From positions 738,844 to 802,843 of the forward strand of contig CAWDQO010000005.1 of assembly GCA_963804525.1 (NCBI GenBank): DNA of 64,000 bases, in the 5' to 3' direction. Below, in pieces: positions 3,699-48,899 of this stretch. Source of the DNA: an uncultured Thermoplasmata archaeon. Lineage in GTDB: Archaea > Thermoplasmatota > Thermoplasmata > Lutacidiplasmatales > UBA184. The notes under the pieces are model-generated. The model was not told the origin of the DNA, made no database searches, and saw nothing but the letters and a program-made list of their open reading frames with translations. Made by a program: the position numbers and the translations under genes. Position 1 is the first letter of the stretch; each line of letters starts with the position of its first letter.

Positions 3699-3818
3699 CG
3701 CTGAGGGGGAGATTTTCCGGGACCGGTCGCGGGCGGCCGGTCCCCTTTGAACTCCCGCGATGCATACGCACCACCAGATCTCGAATCTGGCGCCTTGGCC
3801 GGGCTAGGCTACCTCAGC
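3699..3818 (-). tRNA. tRNA-Ser(CGA) with ~33-nt insertion in the T-loop
   Basis: Hand fold on the minus strand: acceptor GCTGAGG/CCTCAGC; U8A9; D stem GCCT/AGGC; anticodon arm CCAGA-TTCGAGA-TCTGG (anticodon CGA); variable arm GGTGC-GTAT-GCATC; T stem GGGAG/CTCCC with loop TTCAAA[GGGGACCGGCCGCCCGCGACCGGTCCCGGAAAA]T. The parts sum to exactly 120 nt. No encoded CCA. Confidence 0.8.
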
Positions 3819-22423: not shown

Positions 22424-22978
22424 GTGGGTCGGGGTTCCTCGGCGTACGAGCGCGAACTGAAGGAACTCCTCCAGGCCAACCCCGACACGCTCGCCCGGGT
22501 ACTCGAAATCGCTGGCCCCCTCGGATCGCCCCCAGCTCGCCGCGTTCGAGCGAGCCCCGTTCCTCGTCGTCCGGGCCGCGGGGTCGCTCGGGTTCGACCT
22601 CGTCGCGCTCCGCTCGGAGTTCGCGTTCCCGCTCGAGGTGAAGGCGTCGGCGTCGGACACGATCCGGTTCAGCGCCGCCAGTGGGCGGGCCGCCGTCCAG
22701 CTCGAGCAGCACCGCCGGGCGGTCGCCCGGGTCGGGCTCGTGATCCTCTACGCCTACCGGCGGGTCGGCCGGGGCCACGGGGAACCGTGGCGCGTCTACG
22801 CCGGCGGCGTGGGCCCGTCGACGGGCCGGTACCGCGTCCTCAACCGCTGGCTCCCCCCCGTGGAGGCGACGAAGGAGGGAAACGGGGTGTTGCGATGGGG
22901 GGCCGGGATGCCGCTCAGCCGGTTCTTCACCATCGTCGCCAGCCTGACCGAGCCGGCGGCCGGATCCCCCCGCCATGA
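22424..22978 (+). CDS. hjc: Holliday-junction-resolvase-like nuclease (Hjc family), frame-interrupted twice
   Basis: The N-terminus is in the frame of ORF 22424 (GSSAYERELKELLQ). The core is in the frame of ORF 22638 (my upstream translation: DRPQLAAFERAPFLVVRAAGSLGFDLVALRSEFAFPLEVKASASDTIRF...VGLVILYAYRRV). The core frame has no start and no stop before 24437. The breaks fit the C5 run at 22516-22520 and the C6 run at 22966-22971. The frame-A stop forms ATGA with the thiolase start. Confidence 0.65.
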   Translation: MGRGSSAYERELKELLQANPDTLARVLEIAGPLGSPPARRVRASPVPRRPGRGVARVRPRRAPLGVRVPARGEGVGVGHDPVQRRQWAGRRPARAAPPGGRPGRARDPLRLPAGRPGPRGTVARLRRRRGPVDGPVPRPQPLAPPRGGDEGGKRGVAMGGRDAAQPVLHHRRQPDRAGGRIPPP

Positions 22979-24117
22979 AGGTCGCGGTCACCGCGACCGG
23001 CGTCGGGCGGTTCGGCAAGCGGACCGAGACGCTCGTCGAGCTCCTCTGCGAGGCCGGCCGGGAGGCGCTCGACGGCCTCGGCCGGAAGCCGGTCGACCTC
23101 CTGGTCGTCGGCCACATGGCCGGCGGATCGCTCGGGGGGGTCGAGAACACCGTCGCGAAGGTCGCGGACCGGCTCGGGCTCGACGCAGGGTCCGGGGTTC
23201 GCGTGGAGTCGGCGAGCGCGAGCGGGGCCGCCGCCTTCCACACGGCGGTCGCGATGGTCCGGTCCGGCCAGTACGAGCGGGCGCTCGTCGTCGCGGGCGA
23301 GAAGATGACCGACCTGCCGAACGCCGACGCGACGAAGATCCTCGCGGGGTCGCTCGCCCCGTCCGAGGTCGCCCACGGGGCGACGATGCCGGCGCTCGCG
23401 GCGCTCGTCGCGGGCCGGTACCTCGAACGGTACCGCCTCGACGAGGGGGACCTCGACCTGGTGACCGTCGCCGCGCGCGCCGCGGCGGCCCGAAACCCGA
23501 ACGCCCAGTTCTCGAAACCGGTGACGGCCGCGGAGGTCCGCGGAAGCCGACCGGTCGCGCTCCCCCTCCGACTGCTCCACTGCGCCGCCGTCTCGGACGG
23601 GGCGGCCGCCGTCGTCCTCGAGCCGGGGACTGGACCGGCCACGGTGCTCGGCCTCGGTCAGGCGACCGACCACGTCGAGCTCGTGGAACGCCCGGAGCTG
23701 ACGAGCTTCCGGGCGACCCGGGTCGCGGCGCAACGCGCGTACGAGTCGGCTCGCCAGACTCGGAAGGAGGTCGATTTCGCCGAGCTCCACGACGCGTTCG
23801 CCCCGTTCGCGATCATCGACCTCGAGGACATCGGCGCCGTCGGCGCCGGGGAGGGAGCCGCGTGGTTCCGGGGCGGAGCGACGGGGCCCGACGGCCGGTT
23901 TCCCGTGAACCCCTCCGGAGGGATCCTCGGGCGGGGCCACCCTGTGGGAGCCTCCGGCCTCGTCCAACTCGCCGAGGTCGCCCGACAGCTCCGGGGCGAG
24001 GCGGGCGCCATGGCGCTGCCGAAACTCCCCCGCCGAGGACTCGCCCAGTCGATCGGCGGGCTCGGCTCGCACAACTTCGTCACCATCCTCGGCCATTCCG
24101 GGGGCGCGGCACCATGA
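22975..24117 (+). CDS. Thiolase-like acetyl-CoA acetyltransferase (archaeal type)
   Basis: ORF 22975..24117(+). MKVAVTATGVGRFGKR...ESASASGAAAFHTAVAMVRSGQYERALVVAGEKM...NPSGGILGRGHPVGASGL. Confidence 0.85.
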   Translation: MKVAVTATGVGRFGKRTETLVELLCEAGREALDGLGRKPVDLLVVGHMAGGSLGGVENTVAKVADRLGLDAGSGVRVESASASGAAAFHTAVAMVRSGQYERALVVAGEKMTDLPNADATKILAGSLAPSEVAHGATMPALAALVAGRYLERYRLDEGDLDLVTVAARAAAARNPNAQFSKPVTAAEVRGSRPVALPLRLLHCAAVSDGAAAVVLEPGTGPATVLGLGQATDHVELVERPELTSFRATRVAAQRAYESARQTRKEVDFAELHDAFAPFAIIDLEDIGAVGAGEGAAWFRGGATGPDGRFPVNPSGGILGRGHPVGASGLVQLAEVARQLRGEAGAMALPKLPRRGLAQSIGGLGSHNFVTILGHSGGAAP

Positions 24118-24437
24118 GCATGCCCGGCGACCATTCCGATCGTCCGATGCGAACACTGCCACGGGCGGTTCCTCCGCATCCCGGCCCGTGCCCCCGGTGT
24201 GGCTCGACCGACCTTGTGGCCGGGGAGATCCCGGCGAGCGCCGTCGTCCTCGCCGCGACAGAGCTCCTCGCGCCAGCGGCCGGTTGGACAAGCCCGCACC
24301 GCCTCGTGATCGCCGAGGGAGCGGAGAACGTCCGGATTCTCGCCACCGTCGCCGGTCCGCTCCCCGCGGTCGGCTCGCTCGTCACGGTCCGTCAATCCGG
24401 CGACCGGTACGAAGTCACTGCGACCGGTGCCACGTAG
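24114..24437 (+). CDS. DUF35-type OB-fold/Zn-ribbon protein (thiolase partner)
   Basis: Tail of ORF 22638..24437(+), from ATG 24114 (ATGA overlap with the thiolase stop). CPRCGSTDLVAGEIPASAVVLAATEL...VRILATVAGPLPAVGSLVTV. The position after the thiolase gene is the conserved archaeal arrangement. Confidence 0.65.
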   Translation: MSMPGDHSDRPMRTLPRAVPPHPGPCPRCGSTDLVAGEIPASAVVLAATELLAPAAGWTSPHRLVIAEGAENVRILATVAGPLPAVGSLVTVRQSGDRYEVTATGAT

Positions 24438-24479
24438 GCCCAGGTCGGTGCCCGCTCGACGTCGAGCGAGGAACTAGGA

Positions 24480-24594
24480 CGCGGGGAGGGGGAATTTCCG
24501 GCCGCCGGTCGGTCCCGGCACCCGTTTGAACCCCCGAGGTGAAATCACCACAGGATTAGCAATCCTGCGCCTTACCGGGCTGGGCCATCCCCGC
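24480..24594 (-). tRNA. tRNA-Ser(GCU) with ~31-nt insertion in the T-loop
   Basis: Hand fold on the minus strand: acceptor GCGGGGA/TCCCCGC; D stem GCCC/AGGC; anticodon arm CAGGA-TTGCTAA-TCCTG (anticodon GCT); variable arm GGTG-ATTT-CACC; T stem GGGGG/CCCCC with loop TTCAAA[CGGGTGCCGGGACCGACCGGCGGCCGGAAAT]T. The parts sum to exactly 115 nt. Confidence 0.8.
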
Positions 24595-24619
24595 GCGGTG
24601 CGGCCGAGGTCGGTTCGCT

Positions 24620-24628
24620 CCTTAAAGG
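24620..24628 (-). promoter_or_regulatory. TATA-like box for tRNA-Ser(GCU)
   Basis: Minus strand CCTTTAAGG, centred about 30 nt upstream of the tRNA 5' end at 24594. Confidence 0.45.
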
Positions 24629-24683
24629 TTCGGCCGTCGCCGTCCCTTCGTTATGTAGGAGGCTCGCGGTCGCCGGTGCGGGA

Positions 24684-25660
24684 GTGGGTGGGATGCGGGT
24701 GGCGAAGGCTGGGGTCGTCGGCGCCGGGACGATGGGCGCGGCGATCGCCGAGGTGCTCGCCTTCAACGGAATCCCGGTCGTCCTGACCGATGTCGACGGG
24801 GCCGCGGTCGACCGGGGCCTCGGCCGGATTCGCTTTCTCATCGAGGAGCTCGTCGCCTTCCACGCGACGCGCGCCGACCGCGAGGTCGCCCGGATCGCCG
24901 AGTTGGGCATCGAGCTCTCCGGACCGCAGGTGGCCACGGTGCGGGAGCGCCTTGCGCCCAAGGTCACCCCCGCGCGCGGCGTGGAGATTGCGGCCCGCGT
25001 GCGCGGCACGACCGATTGGGCCGAGTTCTCGGACGTCGACTTCGTCGTGGAGGCGGTCTTCGAGCAGGAGGGCGTGAAGCGGCCCGTCCTCGAGAAGCTC
25101 GACCGGGCCCTGCCGGACCATGCGGTGCTCGGCTCCAACACCTCCTCCCTGTCGATCACGCGGCTCGCGAAAGGGCTCGCCCACGTCCGCCAGACGCTCG
25201 TCACGCACTTCTTCAATCCGCCCGGAACGCTGCCGCTCGTCGAGGTTGCCGGTGGCGTCGACACCCGCGAGGACGTCGTCCTGGAGACGATCGACTTCCT
25301 CCAGGGGCTCCGGAACCACCGATCTCCCCTCGTTCCGATCCGCGTGAAGGAGTCGCCGGGGTTCGTCGTGAACCGGATCCTCCTCCCGGTGCTGAACGAG
25401 GCGTGCTTCGCCCTGGAGGAGGGGCTCGCCTCGTCCCGGGACATCGACCTCGCGATGAAGGCCGGCGCGGGGCTGCCGATGGGGCCGTTCGAGCTCGCGG
25501 ACCTCATCGGCCTCGACGTGACCCTCGAGGTCGCCGAGACCCTCGTCCGGGGAACCGGAGACCCGAAGTACCGCCCAGCGCCCGCGCTCCGGAGGCTCGT
25601 CGACGCCGGCCACTCGGCCGGAAGACCGGGCGCGGCTTCTACGACTACTCGACCGGCTGA
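24684..25660 (+). CDS. 3-hydroxyacyl-CoA dehydrogenase, frame-interrupted near 25613
   Basis: ORF 24684..25967(+) carries VVGAGTMGAAIAEVLAFNGIPVVLTD...NTSSLSIT...GFVVNRIL...PMGPFELADLIGLD...LRRLVDAGH. The canonical ending LGRKTGRGFYDYSTG* is in the frame of ORF 25016..25660. One C appears to be missing in CAC(C)TCGG. Confidence 0.85.
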
Positions 25661-25693
25661 CCGAACCGAGCCGGCGCCGCCAAGCGCCGGCCC

Positions 25694-26266
25694 TCAGGGC
25701 GGAGTGGTTTGTCGGGCCAGTTGGAGCGCGCGGGCGTACCACACGAGAGACTCGAACATCGGTGCGAGTCGCTTGCGCCACTTCTCCGGGTCGTTGGGGC
25801 CCGCGGCGGTGAACTCGGTGGCGACGCTCGGTACGAGGACCGACGCGGGAACCGAGATCGCGGCGACCCCGGGCAGGACGATCCGGAGGCCGTCGATCGC
25901 CCTCGCTCCGCCCGCCATCCCGCCCGCACCCACGAGGCCGAACGGTTTGCGGTTCCACTCGTCGTAGAGGCTGTCGAGGAGGTTCTTCAGGGCCCCCGGG
26001 AACCCGTAGTTGTACTCGGGCGTGACGATGACGAACCCGTCCGCGCGGGCCATCGCCTCGACGAACGGGGCGACCCGGGGGTCCGGGTCCTCGAGTTCCC
26101 ATTCGCGGCGCACGAGATTGCCGAACGGCAGGTCGCGCGGGTCGTAGAGGTGCGTCTTCACCCCGGGTCGCTTGGCGAGCTCCGCGGTCACGAACTCCGC
26201 GACCGGGAAGCTGACACGTGCCTCGCGGACGCTGCCGTAGAGGACCGGAAGGAAGAGGTCGGCCAT
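25694..26266 (-). CDS. NADPH-dependent FMN reductase family protein
   Basis: Tail of ORF 25694..26689(-), from ATG 26266. MADLFLPVLYGSVREARVS...FVIVTPEYNYGFPGALKNLLDSL. Confidence 0.8.
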   Translation of the reverse strand: MADLFLPVLYGSVREARVSFPVAEFVTAELAKRPGVKTHLYDPRDLPFGNLVRREWELEDPDPRVAPFVEAMARADGFVIVTPEYNYGFPGALKNLLDSLYDEWNRKPFGLVGAGGMAGGARAIDGLRIVLPGVAAISVPASVLVPSVATEFTAAGPNDPEKWRKRLAPMFESLVWYARALQLARQTTPP

Positions 26267-26342
26267 GGCGGCGGAACGACGCTCGGGGCTAAACCCCGTC
26301 GGTTCCCCCAACTTAACCACCCGTCGCCCTCGTCCCGACTCG

Positions 26343-26744
26343 ATGCCGAAGTTCCCGTCGGCCGAATGGGCCGAGCTCCTGCGGGCCGCGGTGAACGCCG
26401 ACGCGGCGTACGCCGAGGCGGCCCGCGCGTGGGAGGGGGACGTGCTCCTCCGGGTCCTCCCGGACGACGCCGCGGCGCCACCGCCCGGGATCCACCTCGA
26501 CCTCTCCCACGGGTCGTGCCGGTCGGCCGCGTTCGTGGCCGACAGCCGTCCGGTCGACAGCGAGTTCGTCTTCGAGGCGAGCCGTTCCGATTGGCGGGAG
26601 GTCCTCGAGGGCCGGCTCGAGCCTGTCCCGGCGGTTCTCTCGGGGAAAGTGAAGGTCCGAGGAAACCTCGCCAAGGCGATGCGGTTCACGAAAGCCTCGG
26701 GGCTGCTGATCGCGGCGGCGTCGACGGTCCCGACCGAGTTCTAG
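26343..26744 (+). CDS. SCP2 sterol/lipid-binding domain protein
   Basis: Frame of ORF 26265..26744(+), from ATG 26343. MPKFPSAEWAELLRAAVNAD...EFVFEASRSDWREVLEGRLEPVPAVLSGKVKVRGNLAKAMRF. Confidence 0.75.
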   Translation: MPKFPSAEWAELLRAAVNADAAYAEAARAWEGDVLLRVLPDDAAAPPPGIHLDLSHGSCRSAAFVADSRPVDSEFVFEASRSDWREVLEGRLEPVPAVLSGKVKVRGNLAKAMRFTKASGLLIAAASTVPTEF

Positions 26745-27825
26745 GCGGCTGGCGGAGCGGGGACCGCCGGGCCGGGGCCGGCGGGGACGACGGTGCCGCA
26801 GGGGGAGCGAGAGGCTTGGCGGGGGCGGGAGCGGCGGACTTGACCGCGGTGGCGGGCGCCCCGGGAGGGCCGATGGCCGCCCCCACCGATTTGACGGGAG
26901 GCGTCGGCGGCTTGGGGGGCGGCGGCATCAGCAGCCGCTTGTAGAACGCGACGATGTGGGCCCACGTCGCCTCGGCCCGGTTCTGGTCGTACGCGCGGAG
27001 GTCCCGCGAGAGGAAGTCGTGGCCGACCTCGGTCACGGCGTCGAACTCGACCTGCTTCGGGATGACCTTCTCGAGCTGGGCGCGCGCGGAGGCGGCGACC
27101 TTGTCGCGGGTGCCGGCGACGAAGAACACCTTCGCGGTGACGAGCGTGAGGGCGTCCGGGGGAGCGAGGGGGCCGGGTAGGCGACCGCCACCGCGGTCAG
27201 CTTTTGGTCGAGGCCGGCGAGTGCGAGCGCGAGCGACCCGCCGTACGAGAGGCCGAACACCGCCGTCCGGTCCGGGTCGACCATTTCCCGGCCTCGGAGG
27301 TAGGTCAGGGCGTCGGCGTAGTCCTCCGTCAACTTCGACACCCTCGGGGAGGTCACCGCGAGTCCCCCCTTGGTCCGGAGGCCGATCCGAGTACCTGAGA
27401 TGGTCACCGGGGCCGAACAGGCTGGTCTTGCCGAGGTCCGGGACCAGGACCTCGAACCCCTCGCGGGCGAAATGGATCGCGGCGTCGAGGAGGGCGGTCG
27501 TGATCCCGTACACTTCCGGTGTGATCAGGATCCCCGGATGCCGGACGACCTTCGTCGGACGGAGCGCCAGGGCGTACGCCGCGCCGGAGGGAACGGCGTC
27601 GGTGGGGAACGAGACGGTCTCGCTCCGGTACGGGGGAAGCGGCGCGCCGGGCTTCTGCTCCGACCCGGTCCAGGTCTTGTTGAGGAAGTCGATGACGCAG
27701 AGCTTGTACCGCTCCTTCTGCAGGACGATGACCGCCTGCCGCTTCCCGCAGATGTCACAAACGCCGATGACCCCGCTCCCGAACTCGAGGTCCGGGGTCT
27801 TCAGCATCAGGTCGTCGTCGCGCAT
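26686..27825 (-). CDS. Dienelactone-hydrolase-family protein with Cys-containing N-terminal extension and Pro-rich tail; frame-interrupted twice
   Basis: The ends are in ORF 26686..27825(-) (ILITPEVYGITTALLDAAIHFAREGFEVLVPDL ... VFFVAGTRDKVA...VGHDF). The middle is in ORF 27033..27407(-) (DYADALTYLRGREMVDPDRTAVFGLSYGGSLALALAG). The breaks are near 27395 and 27170. Confidence 0.75.
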   Translation of the reverse strand: MRDDDLMLKTPDLEFGSGVIGVCDICGKRQAVIVLQKERYKLCVIDFLNKTWTGSEQKPGAPLPPYRSETVSFPTDAVPSGAAYALALRPTKVVRHPGILITPEVYGITTALLDAAIHFAREGFEVLVPDLGKTSLFGPGDHLRYSDRPPDQGGTRGDLPEGVEVDGGLRRRPDLPPRPGNGRPGPDGGVRPLVRRVARARTRRPRPKADRGGGRLPGPLAPPDALTLVTAKVFFVAGTRDKVAASARAQLEKVIPKQVEFDAVTEVGHDFLSRDLRAYDQNRAEATWAHIVAFYKRLLMPPPPKPPTPPVKSVGAAIGPPGAPATAVKSAAPAPAKPLAPPAAPSSPPAPARRSPLRQPPRTRSGPSTPPRSAAPRLS

Positions 27826-27829
27826 CCGG

Positions 27830-28287
27830 TCAGCCTCTCGCCGCAGGACGACGACCGAGCGGGGTGCGGGCTTTAACCATTGCCCGGCCCGGGGCGAGGC
27901 CCGTCGGGAGTTTCAGGTCGAGACGGGACCGGTCGCGGGGGGCGAGGACGGCGACCCCGTGCGCTCGGAGACGAGCCTGGAACGCCCGGTCCGAGGTCGC
28001 GACCACCGCGCCCTTCCCCGTGGCGGCGGCCAGGACGCCCGCGTCGCCCCGGCCCCGGACCGGGAACGGCGGCCATCGGTTCGCGAGAGAACGGGCGGCC
28101 GACGCGTGGGGGATGTTCCGTGCGACGAGACGGTCGAGCTCGGCGAGCGCCGACGTGGCGACCACGACGCGGGCTCCGGCGGGGAAGATCCGGCCGACCT
28201 CCGCGTCGATCCGGACCCCGTGGGTGAACGGCCAGAAGAGCGCGTTGGCGTCCAGGACGACGAGGGTCTCGCCGTCCGGGGGGTCAC
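27830..28287 (-). CDS. PIN-domain nuclease, start separated from body by a frame break in a G6 run
   Basis: ORF 27830..28165(-) plus my upstream translation: DGETLVVLDANALFWPFTHGVRIDAEVGRIFPAGARVVVATSALAELD...AVVATSDRAFQARLRAHGVAVL. The only start is GTG 28287 (GTGA overlap with the acs stop). It is one frame off, across the GGGGGG run at 28278-28283. Confidence 0.65.
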
Positions 28288-29903
28288 GGGCGACGGAGGG
28301 CGATCCCGAGCGCTTCGCGGTCGTACTGTTCGCCTCCGGTCCGCTGGCGTAGGACGTAGCGTTGGGCCTTCTGGTTCGCGGTCTTCGGGACCTCGACGAG
28401 GAACTCGAGGTACCGGGGGACCATGAAGAACGGCAGGTGCTCGTTGCAGAACCGGAACAGGTCCTCGGCGCTCGCCGACGCGCCGGGCCGGAGCTGGACG
28501 AACGCCTTCACGTCCTCCTCGCCGAGCGGGGACGGGACCCCGACCACCACCGACTCGAACACCGCGGGGTGCCGGTTGAGGACGCTCTCGACGTCGTACG
28601 GGGCTAGGTTCTCCCCGCGGCGCCGGATCACGTCCTTCTTCCGGTCGACGAAATAGTAGTACCCGTCCCCGTCCCGCGTCACGTAGTCGCCGGTGTGGAA
28701 CCAGAGGTTCCGCCACGCCTCGACGGTCTGCTCCGGCTTGTTGCGGTACCCGAGGAACATCGTGTACGGGGCGCTCGGGCGGACGACGAGCTCGCCGCGG
28801 ACGTTCGGCCCGACCGGCTCATCGGCGTCGTCGACCACCTGGGCCTCCACGAACCCGAGCGGCGTGCCCACCGACCCGACCCGGACCCGGTCGGGCGGGT
28901 TCATGAGCGTCGTGCAGCCGCACTCGGTCATCCCGTAGAGCTCGATGATCGAGAGGCCGAACCGACGCTCGAACTCCGGCCAGACCTCGCGCGTGGTGCC
29001 GGCCGTGAGCGCGGTCCCGACCGTGTGCGTCCGGTCGGTGGGACGCTCGGGCTGCTTGAACAGGACGTTGATCATCGAGATCAGCAGGGAGACGTGGGTC
29101 GCGCCGAACGTCGCGGCCGTCTCCCAGAAGCCGGTCGCATGGAACCGCTCGTCGAAGGCGGCCGTGAGGTCGTACTCGAGCGCCGTGAGGGACGTCATCT
29201 CCTGGGCGTTGCAGTGGAACAGCGGGAGGGCGCTGAACAGGACCGACCCCGGGGTCAACCGGCTCCGGGCGCCGATCTCGCGCGGGGTCCGGAGGTACTT
29301 CTCGTGGGGGATGACCGCCCCTTTCGGCGGGCCGGTCGTGCCGCTCGTGTAGAGGATCGCCGCCGGGTCCCCGCCGGTCAGCGGGGTGGAGGCGACCGGA
29401 GCCCGGCGCTCCTCCAGTTCGGACCAGGCGCGGAGCCCGGGGGGAAACGGATTGTCCGAGGCCTCCGCGTCGACGACCCACTCGGTCCCGATGGCGAGTC
29501 CGGGACGGAGCGGCTCGTAGGCGGACCAGAGCCGTCGGTCGACGACGAGCCCCTTCGGCTCGGCGTCGGCGAGCTCGTACCGGAGGATCTCCCCCTTGAG
29601 GGCCGTGTTCAGCGGAACGGCGACCGCGCCCAGCTTCGCGAGGCCGAGCCACGCGAGGACGAACTCCGGGCCGTTGAGGAGGAGCAGGGCGACCCGGTCG
29701 GTCCGGCCGATCCCGGCCTCGACGAGATTTGCCGCGACCCGGTCGGTCGCCTCGTCGAGCTGCTCGTAGGTGAGGGTCCGTCGGGCGAACCGGACCGCGG
29801 GGCGGGTCCCGTTCTTCCGCGCCTTCGCACGGACGAGGGTGGCGAGGTCGTGGTAGACCTCCTCCGCCTCCAGCATCCGGGCCGGCGAGGCGCCCACGCC
29901 CAT
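28284..29903 (-). CDS. AMP-forming acyl-CoA synthetase / fatty-acid-CoA ligase
   Basis: ORF 28284..29903(-), 539 aa, intact. AMP-binding motif ILYTSGTTGPPKGAV; YGMTECG; TGDYVTRDGDGYYYFVDRKKDVIRRRGENL. Confidence 0.9.
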   Translation of the reverse strand: MGVGASPARMLEAEEVYHDLATLVRAKARKNGTRPAVRFARRTLTYEQLDEATDRVAANLVEAGIGRTDRVALLLLNGPEFVLAWLGLAKLGAVAVPLNTALKGEILRYELADAEPKGLVVDRRLWSAYEPLRPGLAIGTEWVVDAEASDNPFPPGLRAWSELEERRAPVASTPLTGGDPAAILYTSGTTGPPKGAVIPHEKYLRTPREIGARSRLTPGSVLFSALPLFHCNAQEMTSLTALEYDLTAAFDERFHATGFWETAATFGATHVSLLISMINVLFKQPERPTDRTHTVGTALTAGTTREVWPEFERRFGLSIIELYGMTECGCTTLMNPPDRVRVGSVGTPLGFVEAQVVDDADEPVGPNVRGELVVRPSAPYTMFLGYRNKPEQTVEAWRNLWFHTGDYVTRDGDGYYYFVDRKKDVIRRRGENLAPYDVESVLNRHPAVFESVVVGVPSPLGEEDVKAFVQLRPGASASAEDLFRFCNEHLPFFMVPRYLEFLVEVPKTANQKAQRYVLRQRTGGEQYDREALGIALRRP

Positions 29904-37170: not shown

Positions 37171-38471
37171 GCCGGCCCCGAAACCGTCCTCGCCACCGAC
37201 GATGGCTGCCGGTCCCGGCCGGCGTGGCCGCCGCGCTCCTGGCGATCGGGAGCATGCTTGGGAGCGTGCTCCCGCTCGTCGGTGCGGCGGGAGGGCACCC
37301 GATGCCCACCTCGTGTGGATACACCGTGGACGTGACCGCGACCCCTTCGACCGGGAGTGCTCCCCTCCTCGTCCGCCTGAGCGCGACCGTATCCGGGGGA
37401 ATCCCGACGGCGTACGATTGGGCGTTCGGCGATGGAAGCTACTGGAACAGTTCGCAGGCTGGGGCGGAGAGTCCGTTGCATCGCTACGCGACCCCGGGAG
37501 CGTACAACGTGAGCGTCCTCGTCATCGAACCGTCGTGCGAGGTCACGGGAGGGGTCACGCTCGTCGCGACCCCCAGCCCCCTGACGATCGCCCTGAGCGC
37601 GACGCCCACCTCCGGCGTGGCACCGCTGACGGTAGAGTTCGTGGCGACGGTGGCCGGCGGGAGCGGGACGTATGCCAGCGTCTTCTGGTCGTTCGGGGAC
37701 GGGGGGGTCGGCGCGGGAGTCGCGGTCAACTACACGTACGTCCGGACCGGGACCTACACCGTCTCGGTGAACGTCACCGACTCCGAGGGACACTGGGCCA
37801 CCGCCCACGAGACGATTGGTGTCCAGGACGGATCGACGGCGCCGAGTGCGGGGTTCGGAGGGGCCGACGATCTTGTGCTGACCGTCGCGGCCGGGGCGGC
37901 GCTCGCCTTCTTGGCGGTTGGCCTCGCTTGGCGCATCGCCGTCCGGGCTCGAGAGAGGGCAGGGACGACCCCAATCCGTACGGCCGCGGGGGAAGCCGGC
38001 GGGTCATCTTCGGGAGAGCCGAGCCGACCGTCCGGCCCATCCGGCGCGTCACCGGCGTTGGCGGGAGCGGCGGGCCCCGCGGTGCCCGCTTCGAGAGCGA
38101 CGGGAAACAGCCCGCAGGCGGATCCGCGCGTCGTTCCCGACCCGCGGGGCCTCCAGTTGACCCAGCGTGTGATCCTGCATATCGGGGCCCAGGGCCGCTT
38201 GTCCCCGGACGATGTCGCCCCGCCCGGGCTCACCCAAGCCGGGATTGCGGACGCCCTCGGGACCGGGCAGAACTCGGTCACGAACGTCCTCCGGAGGCTC
38301 GTCGCGGCGGGTGTGGTCGTCCACGATGTCCGGCACGTCTCGGGACAGCCCCGACGGCTCCGAGTCTACCGGTTCACGGATCGAGGCGAGTCGGTCTACC
38401 GCGATCTTTGGAACCGGTCGAACGCACGGGGGGAGGAGCAGGCGGGGCCCCCTGGCGGAACCTCTCCGTAG
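37167..38471 (+). CDS. Two-pass membrane protein: extracytoplasmic PKD domains + cytoplasmic winged-helix DNA-binding domain
   Basis: Frame of ORF 36102..38471(+), from GTG 37167 (GTGA overlap with the upstream stop). RHRRWLPVPAGVAAALLAIGSMLGSVLPLVG; PKD units (STGSAPLLVRLSATVSGGIPTAYDWAFGDG; TSGVAPLTVEFVATVAGGSGTYASVFWSFGDG...TGTYTVSVNVTDSEG); TM helix LVLTVAAGAALAFLAVGLAW; then LTQRVILHIGAQGRLS...LTQAGIADALGTGQNSVTNVLRRLVAAGVVVHDVRHVSGQPRRLRVYRFTDRG. Confidence 0.75.
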   Translation: MSRPRNRPRHRRWLPVPAGVAAALLAIGSMLGSVLPLVGAAGGHPMPTSCGYTVDVTATPSTGSAPLLVRLSATVSGGIPTAYDWAFGDGSYWNSSQAGAESPLHRYATPGAYNVSVLVIEPSCEVTGGVTLVATPSPLTIALSATPTSGVAPLTVEFVATVAGGSGTYASVFWSFGDGGVGAGVAVNYTYVRTGTYTVSVNVTDSEGHWATAHETIGVQDGSTAPSAGFGGADDLVLTVAAGAALAFLAVGLAWRIAVRARERAGTTPIRTAAGEAGGSSSGEPSRPSGPSGASPALAGAAGPAVPASRATGNSPQADPRVVPDPRGLQLTQRVILHIGAQGRLSPDDVAPPGLTQAGIADALGTGQNSVTNVLRRLVAAGVVVHDVRHVSGQPRRLRVYRFTDRGESVYRDLWNRSNARGEEQAGPPGGTSP

Positions 38472-38724
38472 GAACGCGGACTCCCCCGGTGACGCGAATT
38501 CTTCGGGTTCCATTGGGTCGGGTCGACCACCCACCGAGTGACGGCTCTGCTTCCGCGATGGGCCCACTCAGCCTGGACCCATCACATCCGCCGGCCCACA
38601 GGCACGTGGGCTCGCCAACGGCAGAAGCGATGGTGCTGCATCGCGCGCTCGTTGCGGGCACCCGTCATTGGACGCGCGCGCGATTCTTAAGGGCCTTCGC
38701 CATCGGGCCGGTCCAGGGGCGCGG

Positions 38725-39186
38725 ATGGCCGAAGGGAGCCCAGCGCAGTCGCAACGGTTCGTCGTGGGCTGGGGGGACCTCGATGGCAACAATCACATGG
38801 GCAACACCGCCATCCTGGACCGTGCCGCGGACACCCGGTTCCTGTACTTCGCTTTCCATGGCTTTCCGGGGCAGCGGTTCGCGGCCGAGAGAGTTGGACC
38901 GGTGATCGTTCGGGATGAGCTGGTCTACCGAAAGGAACTCAGGCTCCTCGACCAGTTCACGGTGGACCTCAAGGTCGTCGGTCTCTCGAAGGATGGGGTA
39001 CGGTTCACTCTGGAGAACACGTTCCGCGACGTCAACGGCGAAGTCACCGCAATTGTGAACTCCGAGGGTGTCTGGTTCGACTTGGATCGGCGGAAGCCCC
39101 GTTCCCCGCCGCCCGAGCTCGACGCCGTCCAGCGGGAGATGCCGCGAGCGGAGCGGTTCCGAGAGATCCCCGCGCGGAGTCGCTGA
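38725..39186 (+). CDS. Hotdog-fold acyl-CoA thioesterase (4HBT/YbgC-like)
   Basis: ORF 38668..39186(+), probable ATG at 38725. FVVGWGDLDGNNHMGNTAILDRAADTRFLYF...VIVRDELVYRKELRLLDQFTVDLKVVG. Confidence 0.75.
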   Translation: MAEGSPAQSQRFVVGWGDLDGNNHMGNTAILDRAADTRFLYFAFHGFPGQRFAAERVGPVIVRDELVYRKELRLLDQFTVDLKVVGLSKDGVRFTLENTFRDVNGEVTAIVNSEGVWFDLDRRKPRSPPPELDAVQREMPRAERFREIPARSR

Positions 39187-39282
39187 CCGCCGTTGCCGGC
39201 CCTGGTACCTCCCGCGAAGCTCATCGACGGCGCTCGCCGCCGATAAGGCTCGCGCGGGATAGGGGAGGCACGGACCCCGGGA

Positions 39283-39420
39283 ATGACCGAACCGAACTCC
39301 GCGACGATGTGCCCGACTTGCCAAACCGTCGTGTCGACCGAGCCGGGATGGCGGCTGGTGCAATGCCCGAATTGCGGGGCGATCATCTCGCGAATGGCCG
39401 AAGACGGCTCGTTCGACTGA
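39283..39420 (+). CDS. Small Zn-ribbon protein (45 aa), below the ORF-track cutoff
   Basis: My translation: MTEPNSATMCPTCQTVVSTEPGWRLVQCPNCGAIISRMAEDGSFD*. Preceded by GGGGAGG and GATAAGG. Confidence 0.4.
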   Translation: MTEPNSATMCPTCQTVVSTEPGWRLVQCPNCGAIISRMAEDGSFD

Positions 39421-39554
39421 TCCACGTCCCTGCGGCCCGGCCTCGCGCGTTGGTCTCGGTGATGCCATCGAGCGCGTGGTCCTCACATGAAGCAAGCGCG
39501 GTCTCGGACCCCGCTCGGAACGCCCGGCCCGAGGCTTCTGAGAAATGCCCAGAT

Positions 39555-39932
39555 TCAGCTCTTGTGAACGTCCTCGACATCGTGGCCGTCAGGATCGAGA
39601 ACCCATGTCGCATAGTAGCCCAGATCGTATGCGAGCCGAGCACGGGGTGCTTCCTTGCTCCTGCCTCCCGCCTTCAGAGCCGCCTTGCAGAACGCATCTA
39701 CGTCAGCGTGGCTTTTCGCGACAAGTCCAACGTCGACCGCTTCCGGATCGGGCGTGCCTTCCCTGAGCCAAAGGAAGGCTCTCGTGCCGTCGCCGAAACC
39801 CTTCAAATCCGGGTGTCCTTCGTGGCCCTCGTAATCCACAAAGTTGGAGATCGCGAGCGGTTCCAGGGCCTTGGAATAGAAGGCAACGGAGCGCTCGAAC
39901 TCACGGACTGTGAGGATCACGTGATCGATCAT
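39555..39932 (-). CDS. VOC-family (glyoxalase/bleomycin-resistance fold) protein
   Basis: ORF 39555..40004(-), probable start at M25 (39932). MIDHVILTVREFERSVAFYSKAL...YYATWVLDPDGHDVE. Confidence 0.8.
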   Translation of the reverse strand: MIDHVILTVREFERSVAFYSKALEPLAISNFVDYEGHEGHPDLKGFGDGTRAFLWLREGTPDPEAVDVGLVAKSHADVDAFCKAALKAGGRSKEAPRARLAYDLGYYATWVLDPDGHDVEDVHKS

Positions 39933-40162
39933 TGCCTTCCCAGTCTCCGCCCGGCCGTCCGCCTCCGACGGGTACTCCTCGCCCAACACCTCGAATTCGT
40001 ACATGAATCTGAACCGGTGGCCCCCGCTCTTCTTCCGGTCCCGTCATCGAACCCGCGCTCCCTTCTTGAAGCTCACGCCGAGTCGGTGCAGTCGCGGAAT
40101 GCTCACCCCGACCAACTCGCGAGCCTGCTTCCCAAGGTCCCCGATCGCGGCCTCCGCCACCG

Positions 40163-40996
40163 ATGGCTCGACAGGCTCGAACTGCCTGCTCGCTTCGGTC
40201 CCCCGTGACCGATTCGGCGCCGAATTCCAGCCCGAAGCCGGGCTCTCCTCGGTCCCGCGAAGAGGGGGCTCTCCTCCTCCTCCTCGACATTGGGGCTGCG
40301 CTGCTCCTTGCGTCCCTCTTCGTCGGATGGTATCAGGTCCATGAAGTCAATCGGTTCGGCTGCTCCGGGATCACCGAGTCGTTTTCACCGTTCTGGGTGA
40401 CCGTCACGACAAGCGGCTCGGATTGTCCTCCCTCTGGGGCCGGCACCTTGCAATCCGCCGGGCTTCCCCAGACCGGAGCGCTCTACGCCGCCGCGGGCAT
40501 CCTCACCGCGATTGCCGGGGTGCTTGCGTTGGCGCCGATAGGGCTGAAGGAAGCCGGGCGGCGTTCCCGTCGGGTCTCCATCGCTCTCCTCGCTCTCTCG
40601 GCCCGCGTGCTCGCTATCGGAGCACTCGCTCCAGCCCTCCTCGTGATGGAGCAGACTTCGACGGTTTGCCACGATGAAGGGGTCTCTCAGACGCCGTTCG
40701 AGGTCCCTCTCGGAGGGCCGTCGCCTGGGGCGGTGAACATCTACCTTAACCAGAGTCCGCCCGCCCCCCCGGACCTCCGTAACGACTGGTCGTTCTGGAC
40801 GGGGAGCAGCCCCGGCTCGACTTGGCCGGTCTGGTTTGGCGCTTCCGGACCGTGGAATTCCTTTGCCGGGACAAACTCGTCGGCCGGTGCTGCCTTGGCT
40901 TGGGGCCCAGGATTCGGATTGGCGATCGATCTCGGGGGCCTCGCTCTTCTCGCCGCAGGCCCCGTCCTTGTCTGGAAGCTGAAGCCGCCGAGCTGA
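40163..40996 (+). CDS. Hypothetical membrane protein
   Basis: ORF 40163..40996(+). Hydrophobic helices: LLLLLDIGAALLLASLFVGW, ALYAAAGILTAIAGVLALAPI, IALLALSARVLAIGALAPALLV and LAIDLGGLALLAAGPVLVW. The start is uncertain. Confidence 0.6.
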   Translation: MARQARTACSLRSPVTDSAPNSSPKPGSPRSREEGALLLLLDIGAALLLASLFVGWYQVHEVNRFGCSGITESFSPFWVTVTTSGSDCPPSGAGTLQSAGLPQTGALYAAAGILTAIAGVLALAPIGLKEAGRRSRRVSIALLALSARVLAIGALAPALLVMEQTSTVCHDEGVSQTPFEVPLGGPSPGAVNIYLNQSPPAPPDLRNDWSFWTGSSPGSTWPVWFGASGPWNSFAGTNSSAGAALAWGPGFGLAIDLGGLALLAAGPVLVWKLKPPS

Positions 40997-41157
40997 GTCA
41001 CGGCGAGGCGCCCGATCCATCGCCACGCTCCTCGGGATCACGCGTTCTCGGCCACACGTTCCACTTCGTGAGGCTCGCCCGTCCGCGATTCTCCGGGGTT
41101 CCGCATCGTTCGGAGAGTACGGCGATTCGGCCCATCGGATCGAGGTTGCGGGAGTGG

Positions 41158-41601
41158 TCAGTTGATGTCGAACTCGTTGCCTTCCGGGTCCAGCATCGCC
41201 ACGGCGTAGTGATCGACTCCTTCCTCGAACAGCTCGCGGAGCCGCGTCGCACCCAGACCGGACAGTCTCCCCGCCTCGGCCTCCACCCGCTGTCGCCGCA
41301 CCGCCAGGGGAGTGCTTCGTCCGCCGCCCGCCGCAATGTCGAAGTGGACCCGGTTCTTGACCGTCTTCGTCTCGTCCACCACTTGAAACCAAATGCCGGG
41401 TCCCGACCCGGAGGGGTCGACGAGGCGGTCGGGCCCGGCGCCCAACTCGTCCTCGGGGACCCCGACATCTCTCCAGTAGTCGTCCCAGTTCGCAAACCCC
41501 GCGGGGGGCGGTGCGATCTCGTATCCAAGTGCGGCGGCCCAGAATCGCGCCATGCGGGCGGGGTCCTTGCAGTCAATGACGACTTGGAACTCGAACGACA
41601 T
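41158..41601 (-). CDS. VOC/glyoxalase-like domain protein
   Basis: ORF 41158..41601(-). MSFEFQVVIDCKDPARMARFWAAALGYE...RVHFDI...HYAVAMLDPEGNEF. Confidence 0.8.
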   Translation of the reverse strand: MSFEFQVVIDCKDPARMARFWAAALGYEIAPPPAGFANWDDYWRDVGVPEDELGAGPDRLVDPSGSGPGIWFQVVDETKTVKNRVHFDIAAGGGRSTPLAVRRQRVEAEAGRLSGLGATRLRELFEEGVDHYAVAMLDPEGNEFDIN

Positions 41602-41700
41602 CGTTCGCTCCTCCCATCGGCCACGTGGTCAATCGTCCGCGCTCCTCGCGGTCCCGTGAACGGCCGTGCGGTCGGGTCATCCGATTTGCCCTCAGAGATC

Positions 41701-42573: not shown

Positions 42574-42726
42574 GACGAGCGGACTCGGTCCGTGGGTATA
42601 TCGATTCGTACACGGAGATTCGCGTCGCGGCGGCCCTGCCTCGCCGTACCGGCCCGGGTCCGTCGGGGGGCTCCGGTTATCGACCTCCGCATGCGGTGGT
42701 CCCCCATCTGGTCGCACCGCGAGCTC

Positions 42727-42752: not shown

Positions 42753-42826
42753 CGTCCTTCGTGGAGCCTGCGCGGTGGCAGTGCTCCTCCCTTTCGGTCA
42801 CCAATCTCGCGGAGTCCGGTTCAACC

Positions 42827-45460: not shown

Positions 45461-45831
45461 GTACCTTCAAGACACTTTATTGGACGCGAGCCCCGCCCGA
45501 ATGACTGCCGCGTGTGCGACCGACGCGGCTCCCCCGGCGTCGGAGGGTCCGAGACCCCCGAGCCGCGGGCCGGACGCGCCGGGGTCGACTCGGGGGTGCG
45601 CCGGGGACGGTTCACCGGCCCGCGACGAACCGCATGCGGTCCTGGGGAGGCGGCTCACAAGGATGGCGACGAGCGCTCGATGCAATGGCGGTTCAGCGTT
45701 TCGGACCGAACCAGCCGCCCACTGAACGACGCGGGGGGGGGCTGACGAGCGCGCCGCACCCCGGGGGGGCATTGCGTCGTCCGGCCAGACGAGGGGGCGT
45801 TCGTTTCGGCCCCAGCGGGTGGAGGTGCTTG

Positions 45832-45838
45832 AATATAT
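45832..45838 (+). promoter_or_regulatory. TATA-like box for tRNA-Thr
   Basis: AATATAT, centred about 32 nt upstream of the tRNA 5' end at 45867. Confidence 0.5.
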
Positions 45839-45866
45839 GGCAAATCGGGCATTTTCTCTGACGTGT

Positions 45867-45939
45867 GCCGCCATAGCTCAGTCGGGAGAGCGGCTGATTT
45901 GTAATCAGCAGGTCGGGAGTTCAATCCTCCCTGGCGGCT
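45867..45939 (+). tRNA. tRNA-Thr(UGU), no intron
   Basis: Hand fold: GCCGCCA-TA-GCTC-AGTCGGGA-GAGC-G-GCTGA-TTTGTAA-TCAGC-AGGTC-GGGAG-TTCAATC-CTCCC-TGGCGGC-T. Anticodon TGT. 73 nt. Confidence 0.9.
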
Positions 45940-46097
45940 CCGTACTCCGGCCAGGACGACTGGTCCCTCTCGGGACCGGGACCGAGGTCGGGGCGATCTG
46001 CGACGGCGAGGACGGCCCCGGTCCTGCTCCAGCCGCGGTCATTCCGCGCAATAGTTATGAGTGCCGGCCCGTCGAGCCGATTCGTGACGACCGGGCC

Positions 46098-48899
46098 ATG
46101 AGTCGATTCCACGGGTTTACGACGGCCGCTGTCCTCCTTGTCCTGATTCTGCTCACCTCCGGGTCGTTCGCCGTGCTCGCCTCAGCGTCCCCGACCCTCG
46201 CGAACACCGAGTTCGCTCGCGAGCGGGGCGGGGCGGAGACCTCCGAGGGAAGTACCCTTGCCCACTCTACCGCGGCGAACTCAGGTTCCAACCTCCTCGC
46301 GCCTTCGATCCGTGCCTCGAGCACCCTCCCCGCCCTGGGCGCCTCGTACGGCAGGGTCGCGGAGACCCTCGACCTCCTGAACGATTCGCTCATCCACGGA
46401 AACTTCACGGATGTGGCAAATGGCATCGCGCCCTACGCGGTCGTGGCCGATTCGGCGAACGGGAACGTGTACGTCGCGGATTCGAGTTCGCTCGGTGTCT
46501 CGGTGGTTGACGGCTCAAATGGAACGCTCATCGGCTCGATTCCGACGGTAAACACCCCCACCGCTCTTGCGGTCGACCCCAACCACGGTGTCCTGTTCGT
46601 CGTTACGCGGCCCGTTGAGTTCCTCGGCACGATGGGGAACGTGACCATGGTGGCGACGTCGACCGACCGGGTGATCGCGACGGTTCCGGTGCATGGAATC
46701 CCCTCCGCGGCGACGTACGACCCTGCGAACGGCTACCTCTACGTCACGCTCGTCTCCAAAGACGTTGTCGCGGTTGTCAACACCGCGACGGACGTTTTGG
46801 TCGGTACTCTCCCCGTCGGAACCTCCCCGGATGCGGCCGCCTACAATGCCGGCAACGGGTTTGTGTACATCGCGAACAACGGGTCAGCCAACATTACGGC
46901 GATCGACGGGGCGAACGACTCGATCGCGAGCAGCATTCCGGTCGGGACGGATCCTGTCGCTCTCCAGCCGTTGGACGGGACCGATGACCTCTATGTTGCC
47001 GAGTTCGGGTCGGACGCTCTCGGAATCGTGAACTGGACGACGAATGAGCTCGTCGACTCCGTCTCGCTCGGGTTCGGTCCCCAAGGACTCGCGGAAGACA
47101 GTTCGCTCGGGCTCGTGTACACCGACAACTCCTCCCTGAACGTCTTCGACGCCATCAATTTCCGAACGCAATCGGTGATCACCACGGTCCCGGTCGGGCG
47201 GGGACCCGCGGGGCTCGTGGTGGACCCGGGGAACGGCGACCTCTACCTCGCGGAGTCCCTCTCGGACAATCTCACGGTTGCCAATGCTGCCTCCCGAGGG
47301 ATCGTCGGGTCGATTCAGCTCGGCCTTGAGCCAGAGGCCGCCGCCTTCGACACGGCGAGCGACGAGCTCGGGGTGGTCATGTCCGACCAGAACGCCCTCT
47401 GGCTGTTCAACGCCACGACCGACGTTCGACTCCAGACGATCCCGGTCGGCGTGGCTCCCGCGGACATCGTCTACGATTCGATCAACGAGTGCTTCTACGT
47501 CAGCAACTCTGGCTCGTCGACGGTCAGCGTGGTCAATGGAACTACGAACCACCTGGTCGCCACCGTCTCGGTGGAGACCCAACCCGGCGCGATGGCGTTC
47601 GCTCCGTCGTACGGCTACGTGTTTGTCGCCGACGGAAACGGGCAGGGTTCGCCCGATGTGACCGAGATCCGGGGCGCCGACAACACGGTCGTCGCCCACC
47701 TGCCCATGGGGGGCACGGTCGCGGGTGTCGCGTACGACGCCACCAACGGGGACCTGTACGTCGGGACGGGAAGCGGAATCACGGTCCTCGACCCAATCTC
47801 CAAGGCGACGGTGACGACCATCCCGACGGCCTACCTGCAGCCAACGTTGGGGATCGATGGGGCCACCGGCGAGGTCCTCGCCGGCGGGGTTTTCGATACC
47901 TCGTTCGGGATCTCCGCAAACCTTTCGATCATCGACCCGGCCACGAACCAGATCCTCGCGAACGTGACGGTCGGGGACGCGACCGATGGGATCGACTACG
48001 ATGTCGAGACCGGTCTCGCCTACGTGGCGAGCGCCTTCAACGACACCGTCAGCGTCGTCAACATTTCGGAATCTACGACGGTCGGGACCCTCTCGGTCGG
48101 CTCGTCGCCCGCCGGAATCTCCGACGACGGTTCGGCCGGTCAGCTGTTCGTCACCAATCCGGACTCTGGAACGCTCTCGATCGTTACCATCCCGGGCGCG
48201 GGTCGCTACCCGGTCAACTTTACCGAGCGCGGGCTCCCGACCGGCCAATCCTGGGCCGTCACGATCGCGGGACACGTCGTCTCCTCGACTTCCTCGAGCC
48301 TCGTGGCGGTGGAACGAGACGGTACGCTCGGTTACACCGTGACCCCCGTCGTCGGGTTCACCGCCTCTCCGAATGCATCTTCGGTCACCGTGGACGATTC
48401 GTTCGCCGCGGTCTCCATCTCGTTCGTGGCGCTCCCGCCCACCTTCGCGGTCGAATTCGTCGAGAGCGGGTTGCCGACCGGTGCGAACTGGTCGGTCCAC
48501 TGGCAAGGGCAGGTGAACGTCACCACCCATGCCTCCTCCATCACGGTCGAGTCAGTGAACGGGAGCTTCTCCTGGACGGCGTCCTCCGACGCCGGCTACT
48601 CCGCGAGCCCCGACCACGGGTCCACGACGGTCTCGGGGTTGCCCCTGACGGTCGACATCGCCTTCACGGCGAGCCAACCGGGATCGACTACCTCGAACAA
48701 CGCGGGGGTGTCCGCGTTCGCGGCGTACGAGGGCTTCGGTGTCGCCGGGATTGCCGCCGTCGTCGGGGCGTTGGCGGGGGCGCTCGTTCCACGGAACCGG
48801 GACCGGGTGTCGCCTCCCAGCTCATCCTCTCCCGAACCCCCCGGTGAACCTTCGACGGAGCCGTCGGCCGAACCCCCGGCTGAGCCCCCCGCGTCGTAG
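46098..48899 (+). CDS. Surface protein: YVTN-type beta-propeller repeats + two GLPxGxxW (thermopsin-type) modules + C-terminal TM anchor
   Basis: Frame of ORF 45819..48899(+), from ATG 46098 (upstream of that the ORF overlaps the tRNA). Signal peptide AAVLLVLILLTSGSFAVLASA. More than 12 repeats of the type G..P.G.A.D...G.LYV.N..S.TVSVI. NFTERGLPTGQSWAVTIAG and EFVESGLPTGANWSVHWQG. TM helix GFGVAGIAAVVGALAGALV. Confidence 0.8.
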   Translation: MSRFHGFTTAAVLLVLILLTSGSFAVLASASPTLANTEFARERGGAETSEGSTLAHSTAANSGSNLLAPSIRASSTLPALGASYGRVAETLDLLNDSLIHGNFTDVANGIAPYAVVADSANGNVYVADSSSLGVSVVDGSNGTLIGSIPTVNTPTALAVDPNHGVLFVVTRPVEFLGTMGNVTMVATSTDRVIATVPVHGIPSAATYDPANGYLYVTLVSKDVVAVVNTATDVLVGTLPVGTSPDAAAYNAGNGFVYIANNGSANITAIDGANDSIASSIPVGTDPVALQPLDGTDDLYVAEFGSDALGIVNWTTNELVDSVSLGFGPQGLAEDSSLGLVYTDNSSLNVFDAINFRTQSVITTVPVGRGPAGLVVDPGNGDLYLAESLSDNLTVANAASRGIVGSIQLGLEPEAAAFDTASDELGVVMSDQNALWLFNATTDVRLQTIPVGVAPADIVYDSINECFYVSNSGSSTVSVVNGTTNHLVATVSVETQPGAMAFAPSYGYVFVADGNGQGSPDVTEIRGADNTVVAHLPMGGTVAGVAYDATNGDLYVGTGSGITVLDPISKATVTTIPTAYLQPTLGIDGATGEVLAGGVFDTSFGISANLSIIDPATNQILANVTVGDATDGIDYDVETGLAYVASAFNDTVSVVNISESTTVGTLSVGSSPAGISDDGSAGQLFVTNPDSGTLSIVTIPGAGRYPVNFTERGLPTGQSWAVTIAGHVVSSTSSSLVAVERDGTLGYTVTPVVGFTASPNASSVTVDDSFAAVSISFVALPPTFAVEFVESGLPTGANWSVHWQGQVNVTTHASSITVESVNGSFSWTASSDAGYSASPDHGSTTVSGLPLTVDIAFTASQPGSTTSNNAGVSAFAAYEGFGVAGIAAVVGALAGALVPRNRDRVSPPSSSSPEPPGEPSTEPSAEPPAEPPAS

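Follow-up and report, generated by a model that had tools for sequence, protein, structure and literature searches.

Two serine tRNA genes in the 64,000-nt stretch of DNA analysed here (hereafter the window) are interrupted in the T loop, by 31 and 33 nucleotides, which raises the question of whether these inserts are introns of functional genes, parts of the mature tRNAs or marks of damage. We consider it very probable that both loci are functional tRNA-Ser genes, each bearing one protein-spliced intron of the bulge-helix-bulge (BHB) type between tRNA positions 59 and 60. We infer cleavage, ligation and the enzymes involved from sequence, and the steps that lead to this reading are set out below.

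The serine tRNA genes and their genomic setting

The window has a G+C content of about 70% and encodes archaeal-type proteins, among them a bifunctional PGI/PMI-type isomerase domain, a KaiC-like ATPase and a thiolase. The thiolase gene (22975..24117) lies beside tRNA-Ser(GCU), and its nearest relatives (79-86% identity) are found in Thermoplasmata metagenome-assembled genomes, with Candidatus Lutacidiplasma silvani AcS3-62 and sister genomes among the closest; a look-up for contigs encoding the identical thiolase protein gave no match. These sequences point to a high-GC Thermoplasmata archaeon near Candidatus Lutacidiplasma as the host of the window. The Lutacidiplasmatales (formerly TMEG) have been described as high-GC (~69%) archaea originating from acidic soil, in a paper that makes no mention of tRNA introns (PMC9287336). 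The tRNA-Ser(GCU) gene is housed in a beta-oxidation neighbourhood (22975-29903) with genes for the thiolase, a 3-hydroxyacyl-CoA dehydrogenase, SCP2 and an AMP-binding acyl-CoA synthetase, and the order thiolase - tRNA-Ser - dehydrogenase is maintained throughout the clade: among the 120 metagenome loci listed, the thiolase adjoins in 94 and the dehydrogenase in 80.

In the window, the dehydrogenase gene (24684..25967, + strand) lacks one C of a CC run that is present in five relatives (GGCCA-CTCGG in the window versus GGCCACCTCGG in the relatives, at 25600-25660), and the conserved C-terminus (LGRKTGRGFYDYSTG, followed by the stop) lies in a different frame after this 1-nt loss. The frameshift is either a small assembly indel or the sign of a recent pseudogene. 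Elsewhere, G+C falls from about 0.72 to about 0.66 across 38000-50000, the stretch that holds tRNA-Thr(UGU); an open reading frame following this tRNA gene in the low-G+C stretch (45819..48899) encodes a beta-propeller repeat protein of about 1000 residues.

The tRNA-Ser(GCU) gene reads, as the reverse complement of 24480..24594, GCGGGGATGGCCCAGCCCGGTAAGGCGCAGGATTGCTAATCCTGTGGTGATTTCACCTCGGGGG-TTCAAA-CGGGTGCCGGGACCGACCGGCGGCCGGAAAT-T-CCCCCTCCCCGCG. It has a 7-bp acceptor stem (GCGGGGA/TCCCCGC), a Ser-type D arm, the anticodon loop TTGCTAA (anticodon GCU) and a long variable arm (GGTG-ATTT-CACC), and its T stem, GGGGG/CCCCC, encloses a 38-nt loop that consists of TTCAAAT and 31 extra nucleotides between positions 59 and 60 (Table 1). 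Direct reading bears out the preliminary description in this T stem around TTCAAA, 31 nucleotides and T, in the GCCGG/CCGGC hairpin within the insert, and in a second interrupted tRNA-Ser gene about 20 kb away, the measured distance being 20.8 kb. In this second gene, tRNA-Ser(CGA), the T stem GGGAG/CTCCC holds TTCAAA, 33 nucleotides that include an 8-bp hairpin (GGGACCGG/CCGGTCCC) and end in CCGGAAAA, and T; the insertion thus occupies the identical T-loop position in both isoacceptors, as had been claimed. The tRNA-Thr(UGU) gene of the window (45867..45939) has no insertion, again as described, and neither tRNA-Ser gene encodes CCA.

Table 1. Features of the two interrupted serine tRNA loci, in window coordinates
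Feature	Position	Strand	Remarks
Promoter-like BRE and TATA element, CGAACCTTTAAGG	24620..24632	-	TTTAA at -32..-28 from the mature 5' end
tRNA-Ser(GCU) gene with intron	24480..24594	-	115-nt pre-tRNA body, CCA not encoded; direct reading
5' exon, tRNA positions 1-59	24525..24594	-	70 nt; GGGGG 24535..24531, TTCAAA 24530..24525
Predicted intron between positions 59 and 60, CGGGTGCCGGGACCGACCGGCGGCCGGAAAT	24494..24524	-	31 nt; ends in CCGGAAAT
3' exon: U60, CCCCC (24492..24488), TCCCCGC, discriminator G	24480..24493	-	Direct reading
BHB central helix, 5' strand U54 U55 C56 A57	24527..24530	-	Partner counts in 109 distinct GCU introns
5' bulge: A58, A59 and intron nucleotide 1	24524..24526	-	Predicted 5' cut 24525/24524
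Intron hairpin h'	24500..24523	-	GG/CC base, then GCCGG-GACCGA-CCGGC; MFE fold and covariation
BHB central helix, 3' strand GGAA, intron positions -6 to -3	24496..24499	-	Pattern in relatives
3' bulge A-U-U60	24493..24495	-	Predicted 3' cut 24494/24493
tRNA-Ser(CGA) gene with 33-nt intron	3699..3818	-	5' exon 3746..3818, intron 3713..3745, 3' exon 3699..3712

A combined tRNA-Ser pattern matched the window exactly twice, at the two tRNA-Ser genes, and matched none of 100 shuffled sequences, which excludes a chance origin of the pattern; the GCU precursor folds with a z score of -3.6. Neither tRNA-Ser gene was detected in the window by ARAGORN or by an Rfam tRNA search at the gathering score, and a permissive Rfam search returned the 5' parts alone of both. 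When the inserts were removed in silico, ARAGORN reported an 84-nt tRNA-Ser(gct) and an 87-nt tRNA-Ser(cga), neither of which was called in the unspliced form, and both spliced sequences are collinear with intron-less orthologues (L159, L092 and L107, see below). Joining of the exons yields a normal tRNA-Ser cloverleaf, and the misses by ARAGORN and Rfam reflect a limit of the tools, not evidence against the genes. ARAGORN likewise mis-folds three intron-bearing relatives (L089 1155-1246, L105 700-780 and L156 2878-2965), which it models as shifted or shortened 'tRNA-Ser' with intron sequence taken as T arm or acceptor.

The 114 distinct regions upstream of the GCU gene give the consensus CGAAGCTTTAAGG, which spans roughly -36 to -26 relative to the mature 5' end, with positions -31..-28 being 96-98% A/T in a lineage of about 70% GC. 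The element resembles an archaeal BRE/TATA promoter, and an AAATA box lies equally far upstream of the CGA gene. The motif CGAAssTTTAAGG, about 30 nt upstream of tRNA-Ser(GCU) in L001-L158, is sharply kept and provides a clean BRE/TATA consensus for an uncultured order.

Conservation of the insert across relatives

Of 38 loci fetched via the thiolase, 30 contain tRNA-Ser(GCU) with unchanged location and orientation; the remaining eight comprise six loci of distant homologues and two contigs that break off beside the thiolase. Each of the 30 syntenic genome loci, that of Candidatus Lutacidiplasma silvani AcS3-62 among them, carries an insert of 29-33 nt at exactly 59/60. In addition, metagenomes were scanned with a tRNA-Ser pattern that did not require an intron, which matched at least 120 contigs. 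Among the matches listed were at least 105 tRNA-Ser(GCU) genes with an insert of 30-34 nt, at least six tRNA-Ser(CGA) genes, every one with a 33-nt insert at 59/60, at least two intron-less GCU genes (L092 and L107) and at least seven truncated copies; these matches comprised the GCU and CGA isoacceptors only. The position of the insert is constant and its length is 29-34 nt in at least 136 GCU copies. Compared with the window GCU gene, the exons of the 30 orthologues differ at 0-6 of 84 positions, the introns are 55-94% identical, and every intron-bearing copy has an identical 3' exon. When the collected loci were scanned generically for further T-loop introns, the known Ser genes and chance matches in coding sequence were the only results.

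The two genes might be pseudogenes disrupted by an insertion, such as a mobile-element scar or an attachment-site remnant, or the inserts might be assembly errors. Both genes are missed by standard tRNA finders, and the 1-nt frameshift in the adjacent dehydrogenase gene indicates that the assembly may contain small indels. However, an assembly artefact is excluded, since the same insert recurs in more than 100 metagenome contigs as well as in 30 independent assemblies of genomes, and the exons of these copies are near-invariant. The promoter is conserved, changes within the insert are compensatory (see below), synteny is kept on both sides in the proportions given above, and neither the window nor the examined loci of the clade showed a GCU or CGA gene free of the intron. 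Disruption or misassembly is therefore already contradicted by the evidence, and we regard its probability as close to negligible; the synteny conserved on both sides also rules out an origin from a mobile element or attachment site. The suggestion in the preliminary description that the inserts represent a conserved, processed element and not random damage, for which it proposed a check of relatives for the 59/60 intron, agrees with their presence in the 30 syntenic Thermoplasmata loci and in the metagenomic GCU and CGA genes.

Intron-less orthologues, which the same description had linked to an assembly artefact should they occur in the lineage together with read-level heterogeneity of this assembly at the site, do exist (L092, L107 and L159), but they belong to other Thermoplasmata lineages. 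Their contigs have a GC content of 55-59% (55-58% for L092 and L107) and lack the thiolase/dehydrogenase synteny. A neighbouring gene ties L092 and L107 to other Thermoplasmata, one of which is the complete genome CP070808.1 (L159). In all three, the tRNA-Ser(GCU) gene reads GGGGG-TTCAAAT-CCCCC at the junction, the exact product expected from splicing at 59/60. On this sequence comparison, the intron is specific to the clade within the Thermoplasmata. The intron-less orthologues encode the 3' CCA (L159 4470-4556, L092 2807-2893 and L107 2507-2593), and in L159 a T run directly follows it.

Architecture of the insert

At intron positions -6 to -3, the GCU introns carry a tract that can pair with the T-loop nucleotides U54-U55-C56-A57. 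Among 109 distinct GCU introns, U54 faces A in 72 and G in 37, U55 faces A in 74 and G in 35, C56 faces G in all 109, and A57 faces G in 107 and U in 2; A57 likewise faces G in six of six CGA introns. Three positions of this central helix always pair (U-A/U·G, U-A/U·G and C-G), and the fourth is mostly an A·G apposition with correct spacing. A58 and A59 are invariant and are followed by a first intron nucleotide that is free (G52/A47/C10); the last two intron nucleotides vary freely and precede an invariant U60. The central helix is thus flanked by two 3-nt bulges on opposite strands, A58-A59-i1 and N-N-U60, with a predicted splice site in each, by an outer helix h, the 5-bp T stem, and by an inner helix h', the intron hairpin. 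The predicted 5' cut is placed by the symmetry of this motif and by the 7-nt T loop TTCAAAT of the intron-less orthologues. The six metagenomic CGA introns and the window CGA intron obey the same rules.

Covariation was examined in a gap-free alignment of 60 distinct 31-nt introns (alignment A2). The proposed structure pairs 87% of the cells in this alignment, compared with 33-69% when the partners are slid against each other. In h', nine of ten pairs are changed on both sides, the observed covariation was reached by none of 500 shuffles, and in a separate test pairs 2-8 lay above all 1000 shuffles; RNAalifold independently finds the T stem and the hairpin. Intron columns that never vary belong to the BHB motif, and the near-invariant columns belong to the apical helix. 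The apex of the hairpin, CGG...CCG, is unusually constant (alignment A2 columns 19-21 and 28-30, window 24516-24514 and 24507-24505), two of its pairs being at least 87% constant and the lower pairs covarying freely.

In minimum-free-energy folds, a 7x7 internal loop takes the place of the short central helix; in our judgement, nearest-neighbour folding would not be expected to favour a short helix between two bulges. The restriction of substitutions opposite U54 and U55 to A and G, by contrast, argues that the central helix forms. Of the BHB motif whose formation in silico the preliminary description had proposed as a check, the comparison of introns shows the layout and a covarying hairpin, the fourth central position being A·G in 107 of 109 distinct GCU introns. 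In the window GCU copy, the first intron nucleotide, C, could pair with the G opposite A57, which would leave AAA as the bulge beside a central helix of 3 bp; the occurrence of G, A or C as the first intron base across the family argues against this register as a general one.

Two distinct introns, found at three loci (L047, L124 and L129), have U opposite A57 and can form four standard pairs. These loci represent a lower-GC branch, the L047 and L124 contigs having a GC content of about 56-57%, and the branch shares the variable-arm sequence GTGCTTGCAC with L025-L029.

The two window inserts had also been described as having related 3' ends. The likeness stands (CCGGAAAT in the GCU gene and CCGGAAAA in the CGA gene, sharing CCGGAAA(T/A)), but common descent need not follow from it, as the GGRR strand must pair with U54-U55-C56-A57 of the T loop in either case. 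The shared ending is no proof of homology by itself, and the remainder of the introns is too short and too GC-rich to decide between common and separate origins. A box C/D guide within the intron was considered and rejected, the introns being 29-34 nt long and the alignment A2 consensus containing no C (RUGAUGA) or D (CUGA) boxes.

Taken together, the alignments show an intron that, as judged from sequence variation, is constrained only where the BHB motif requires it, joined to exons under strong constraint. This pattern bears on the possibility that the insert is retained and that the mature tRNA-Ser bears an extra hairpin in the T loop. The 59/60 site would be suited to such an extension, loop nucleotides facing outward there. 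The GGRR tract, however, is complementary to U54-U55-C56, which must build the T-loop fold and touch the D loop at the elbow; the selected complementarity (A or G opposite U, G opposite C56) suits a precursor and not a mature tRNA, and the intron-less orthologues have the standard 7-nt loop. We hold retention of the insert to be highly improbable, and favour its removal by splicing.

Predicted processing and relation to known introns

Based on these results, we suggest the following course of events for the spliced intron. A BRE/TATA promoter located some 30 nt upstream would drive transcription. The T loop would be unformed in the precursor, with U54-U55-C56-A57 pairing with the GGRR tract of the intron in a central helix of three Watson-Crick or G·U pairs and an A·G apposition (A-U in a few lineages). 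This 4-position helix would lie between the two 3-nt bulges, with the T stem closing outside and the GC-rich intron hairpin inside. The archaeal splicing endonuclease would cut between nucleotides 2 and 3 of each bulge, at A59/i1 and iN/U60. Sealing of A59 to U60 by an RtcB-type ligase would then restore UUCAAAU as the T loop, with the predicted spliced junction GGTTCAAA|TCCCCC. CCA would be added after splicing, as it is not encoded.

The type of endonuclease can be approached through relatives. Thermoplasma acidophilum, a relative, has a narrow-specificity alpha'2 endonuclease (PMC6379350), and Cluster II euryarchaea are said to encode the alpha'2 type only (PMC5829648); an alpha'2 enzyme in the lineage of the window is accordingly a presumption from phylogeny. 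A BHB motif can be moved to new sites and is recognised at any place where it forms, rRNA precursors included (PMC6379350). The alpha4 and alpha'2 enzymes require a strict 3-4-3 motif (PMC3239211, PMC4033280), and an alpha'2 enzyme failed in vitro on a relaxed 59/60 mini-helix without one bulge (PMC5829648). Whereas one bulge was absent from the substrate of that assay, the introns of the present clade have both bulges and the flanking helices in every copy, and retention of both bulges and both flanking helices is what we would expect if a narrow enzyme must process them. Searches by tblastn, with M. jannaschii EndA (identical to PDB 1A79) and the A. fulgidus catalytic domain as endonuclease queries, found no EndA in the window or in 1.17 Mb of related loci, and RtcB was likewise absent from both. 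A search with a 75-aa EndA fragment gave 14 matches, all unrelated; with a 5-sequence EndA profile, the best 120 of 5351 matches were mostly from methanogens and a few other euryarchaea, none of them named Thermoplasmata.

The A·G apposition at the fourth central position, present in 107 of the 109 distinct GCU introns, stands against a strict motif, as it does not provide four standard pairs. It might instead be a specific recognition feature, the insert being removed by means other than the standard endonuclease acting on a BHB motif, for example by an endonuclease of the lineage with altered or broadened specificity or by another RNase acting on the 7x7 internal loop. In line with such processing, G stands opposite A57 in nearly all GCU introns and in all six CGA introns, although U would pair in a standard manner, and published work ascribes a requirement for the strict 3-4-3 form to the alpha4 and alpha'2 types (PMC3239211, PMC4033280). 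Yet bulge sizes, spacing, flanking helices and predicted cut positions all fit the standard motif, and the G is not obligatory, U being found opposite A57 at L047, L124 and L129. Non-standard removal thus seems to us very unlikely, and cleavage by the standard endonuclease is the reading carried forward here.

Viewed as a BHB intron, the insert closely resembles the canonical intron at 37/38. In both, a 5-bp outer stem carries a 7-nt loop, bulges of 3 nt flank a central helix of four positions, and the intron forms a hairpin (hBHBh'); both introns are located one nucleotide before the 3' strand of their arm. Positions 54-57 match 32-35, positions 58-59 match 36-37, and position 60 matches 38. 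A further pair links the first nucleotide of the loop to the intron nucleotide three places ahead of the 3' splice site, and we take this pair to be the equivalent of the anticodon-intron pair of canonical introns. The two differ in the arm concerned and in the fourth central position, which is A·G in nearly all 59/60 copies. On these sequence correspondences, the T-arm intron at 59/60 appears to be the counterpart of the canonical 37/38 intron.

Position 59/60 is among the documented sites of non-canonical introns (PMC4090602), and introns at this position are known in tRNA-Cys and tRNA-Pro of ARMAN-2 (PMC3239211). The ARMAN-2 introns are similar in their T-loop position, short length and BHB-type boundary, in the pairing of exon loop nucleotides with the intron 3' end, and in a predicted splicing endonuclease and ligase (PMC3239211, PMC4090602). 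However, the ARMAN-2 tRNA-Cys intron has 13 nt, forms a relaxed hBH motif and is cut by a broad-specificity epsilon2 enzyme, whereas the introns described here have 29-34 nt with both bulges and the flanking helices, relatives of the window lineage have the narrow alpha'2 enzyme, and the intron is fixed clade-wide in two tRNA-Ser isoacceptors. For the Euryarchaeota, tRNAscan-SE 2.0 lists 25 non-canonical introns in 144 genomes (PMC8450103, supplementary file 5, Table S7), including six in three genomes of Methanomassiliicoccales and one in five genomes of Thermoplasmatales (PMC8450103); these introns belong to the same class (Thermoplasmata) and the same intron category, and the table gives counts alone, with no positions or isotypes (PMC8450103). 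In the published literature, we found no description of a clade-wide 59/60 intron in tRNA-Ser of Lutacidiplasmatales. The kind of intron is known and its position is rare but documented; its occurrence in this lineage was previously undescribed.

A stronger version of the splicing model can be envisaged, in which the 59/60 intron is ancient, functional and obligatory in all tRNA-Ser isoacceptors of the order, and in which the specificity of the endonuclease has shifted such that A57·G serves as a recognition element. We consider this version unlikely. If true, the intron might serve to order T-loop modification, in quality control or in shielding the 3' half of the gene from integrating elements, and tRNA and endonuclease would have co-evolved within the alpha'2 euryarchaea, a group to which published work assigns canonical introns only.

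The general picture of archaeal tRNA splicing is unchanged by these findings. In practice, tools that have no model of non-canonical introns miss or mis-call two serine tRNAs throughout a widespread clade of acidic soil and peat, which affects the tRNA complements and completeness estimates of metagenome-assembled genomes. The more than 100 natural variants of a single intron provide a ready mutational map of the requirements of the motif, including the preference for G opposite A57. Finally, according to reviews, the introns of euryarchaea that have an alpha4 or alpha'2 enzyme are confined to 37/38 (PMC4090602, PMC4033280). A fixed 59/60 intron that retains both bulges and both flanking helices in a clade of Thermoplasmata qualifies this statement for the euryarchaea, and it is the pattern to be expected if a narrow enzyme accepts any position as long as the motif stays near strict.
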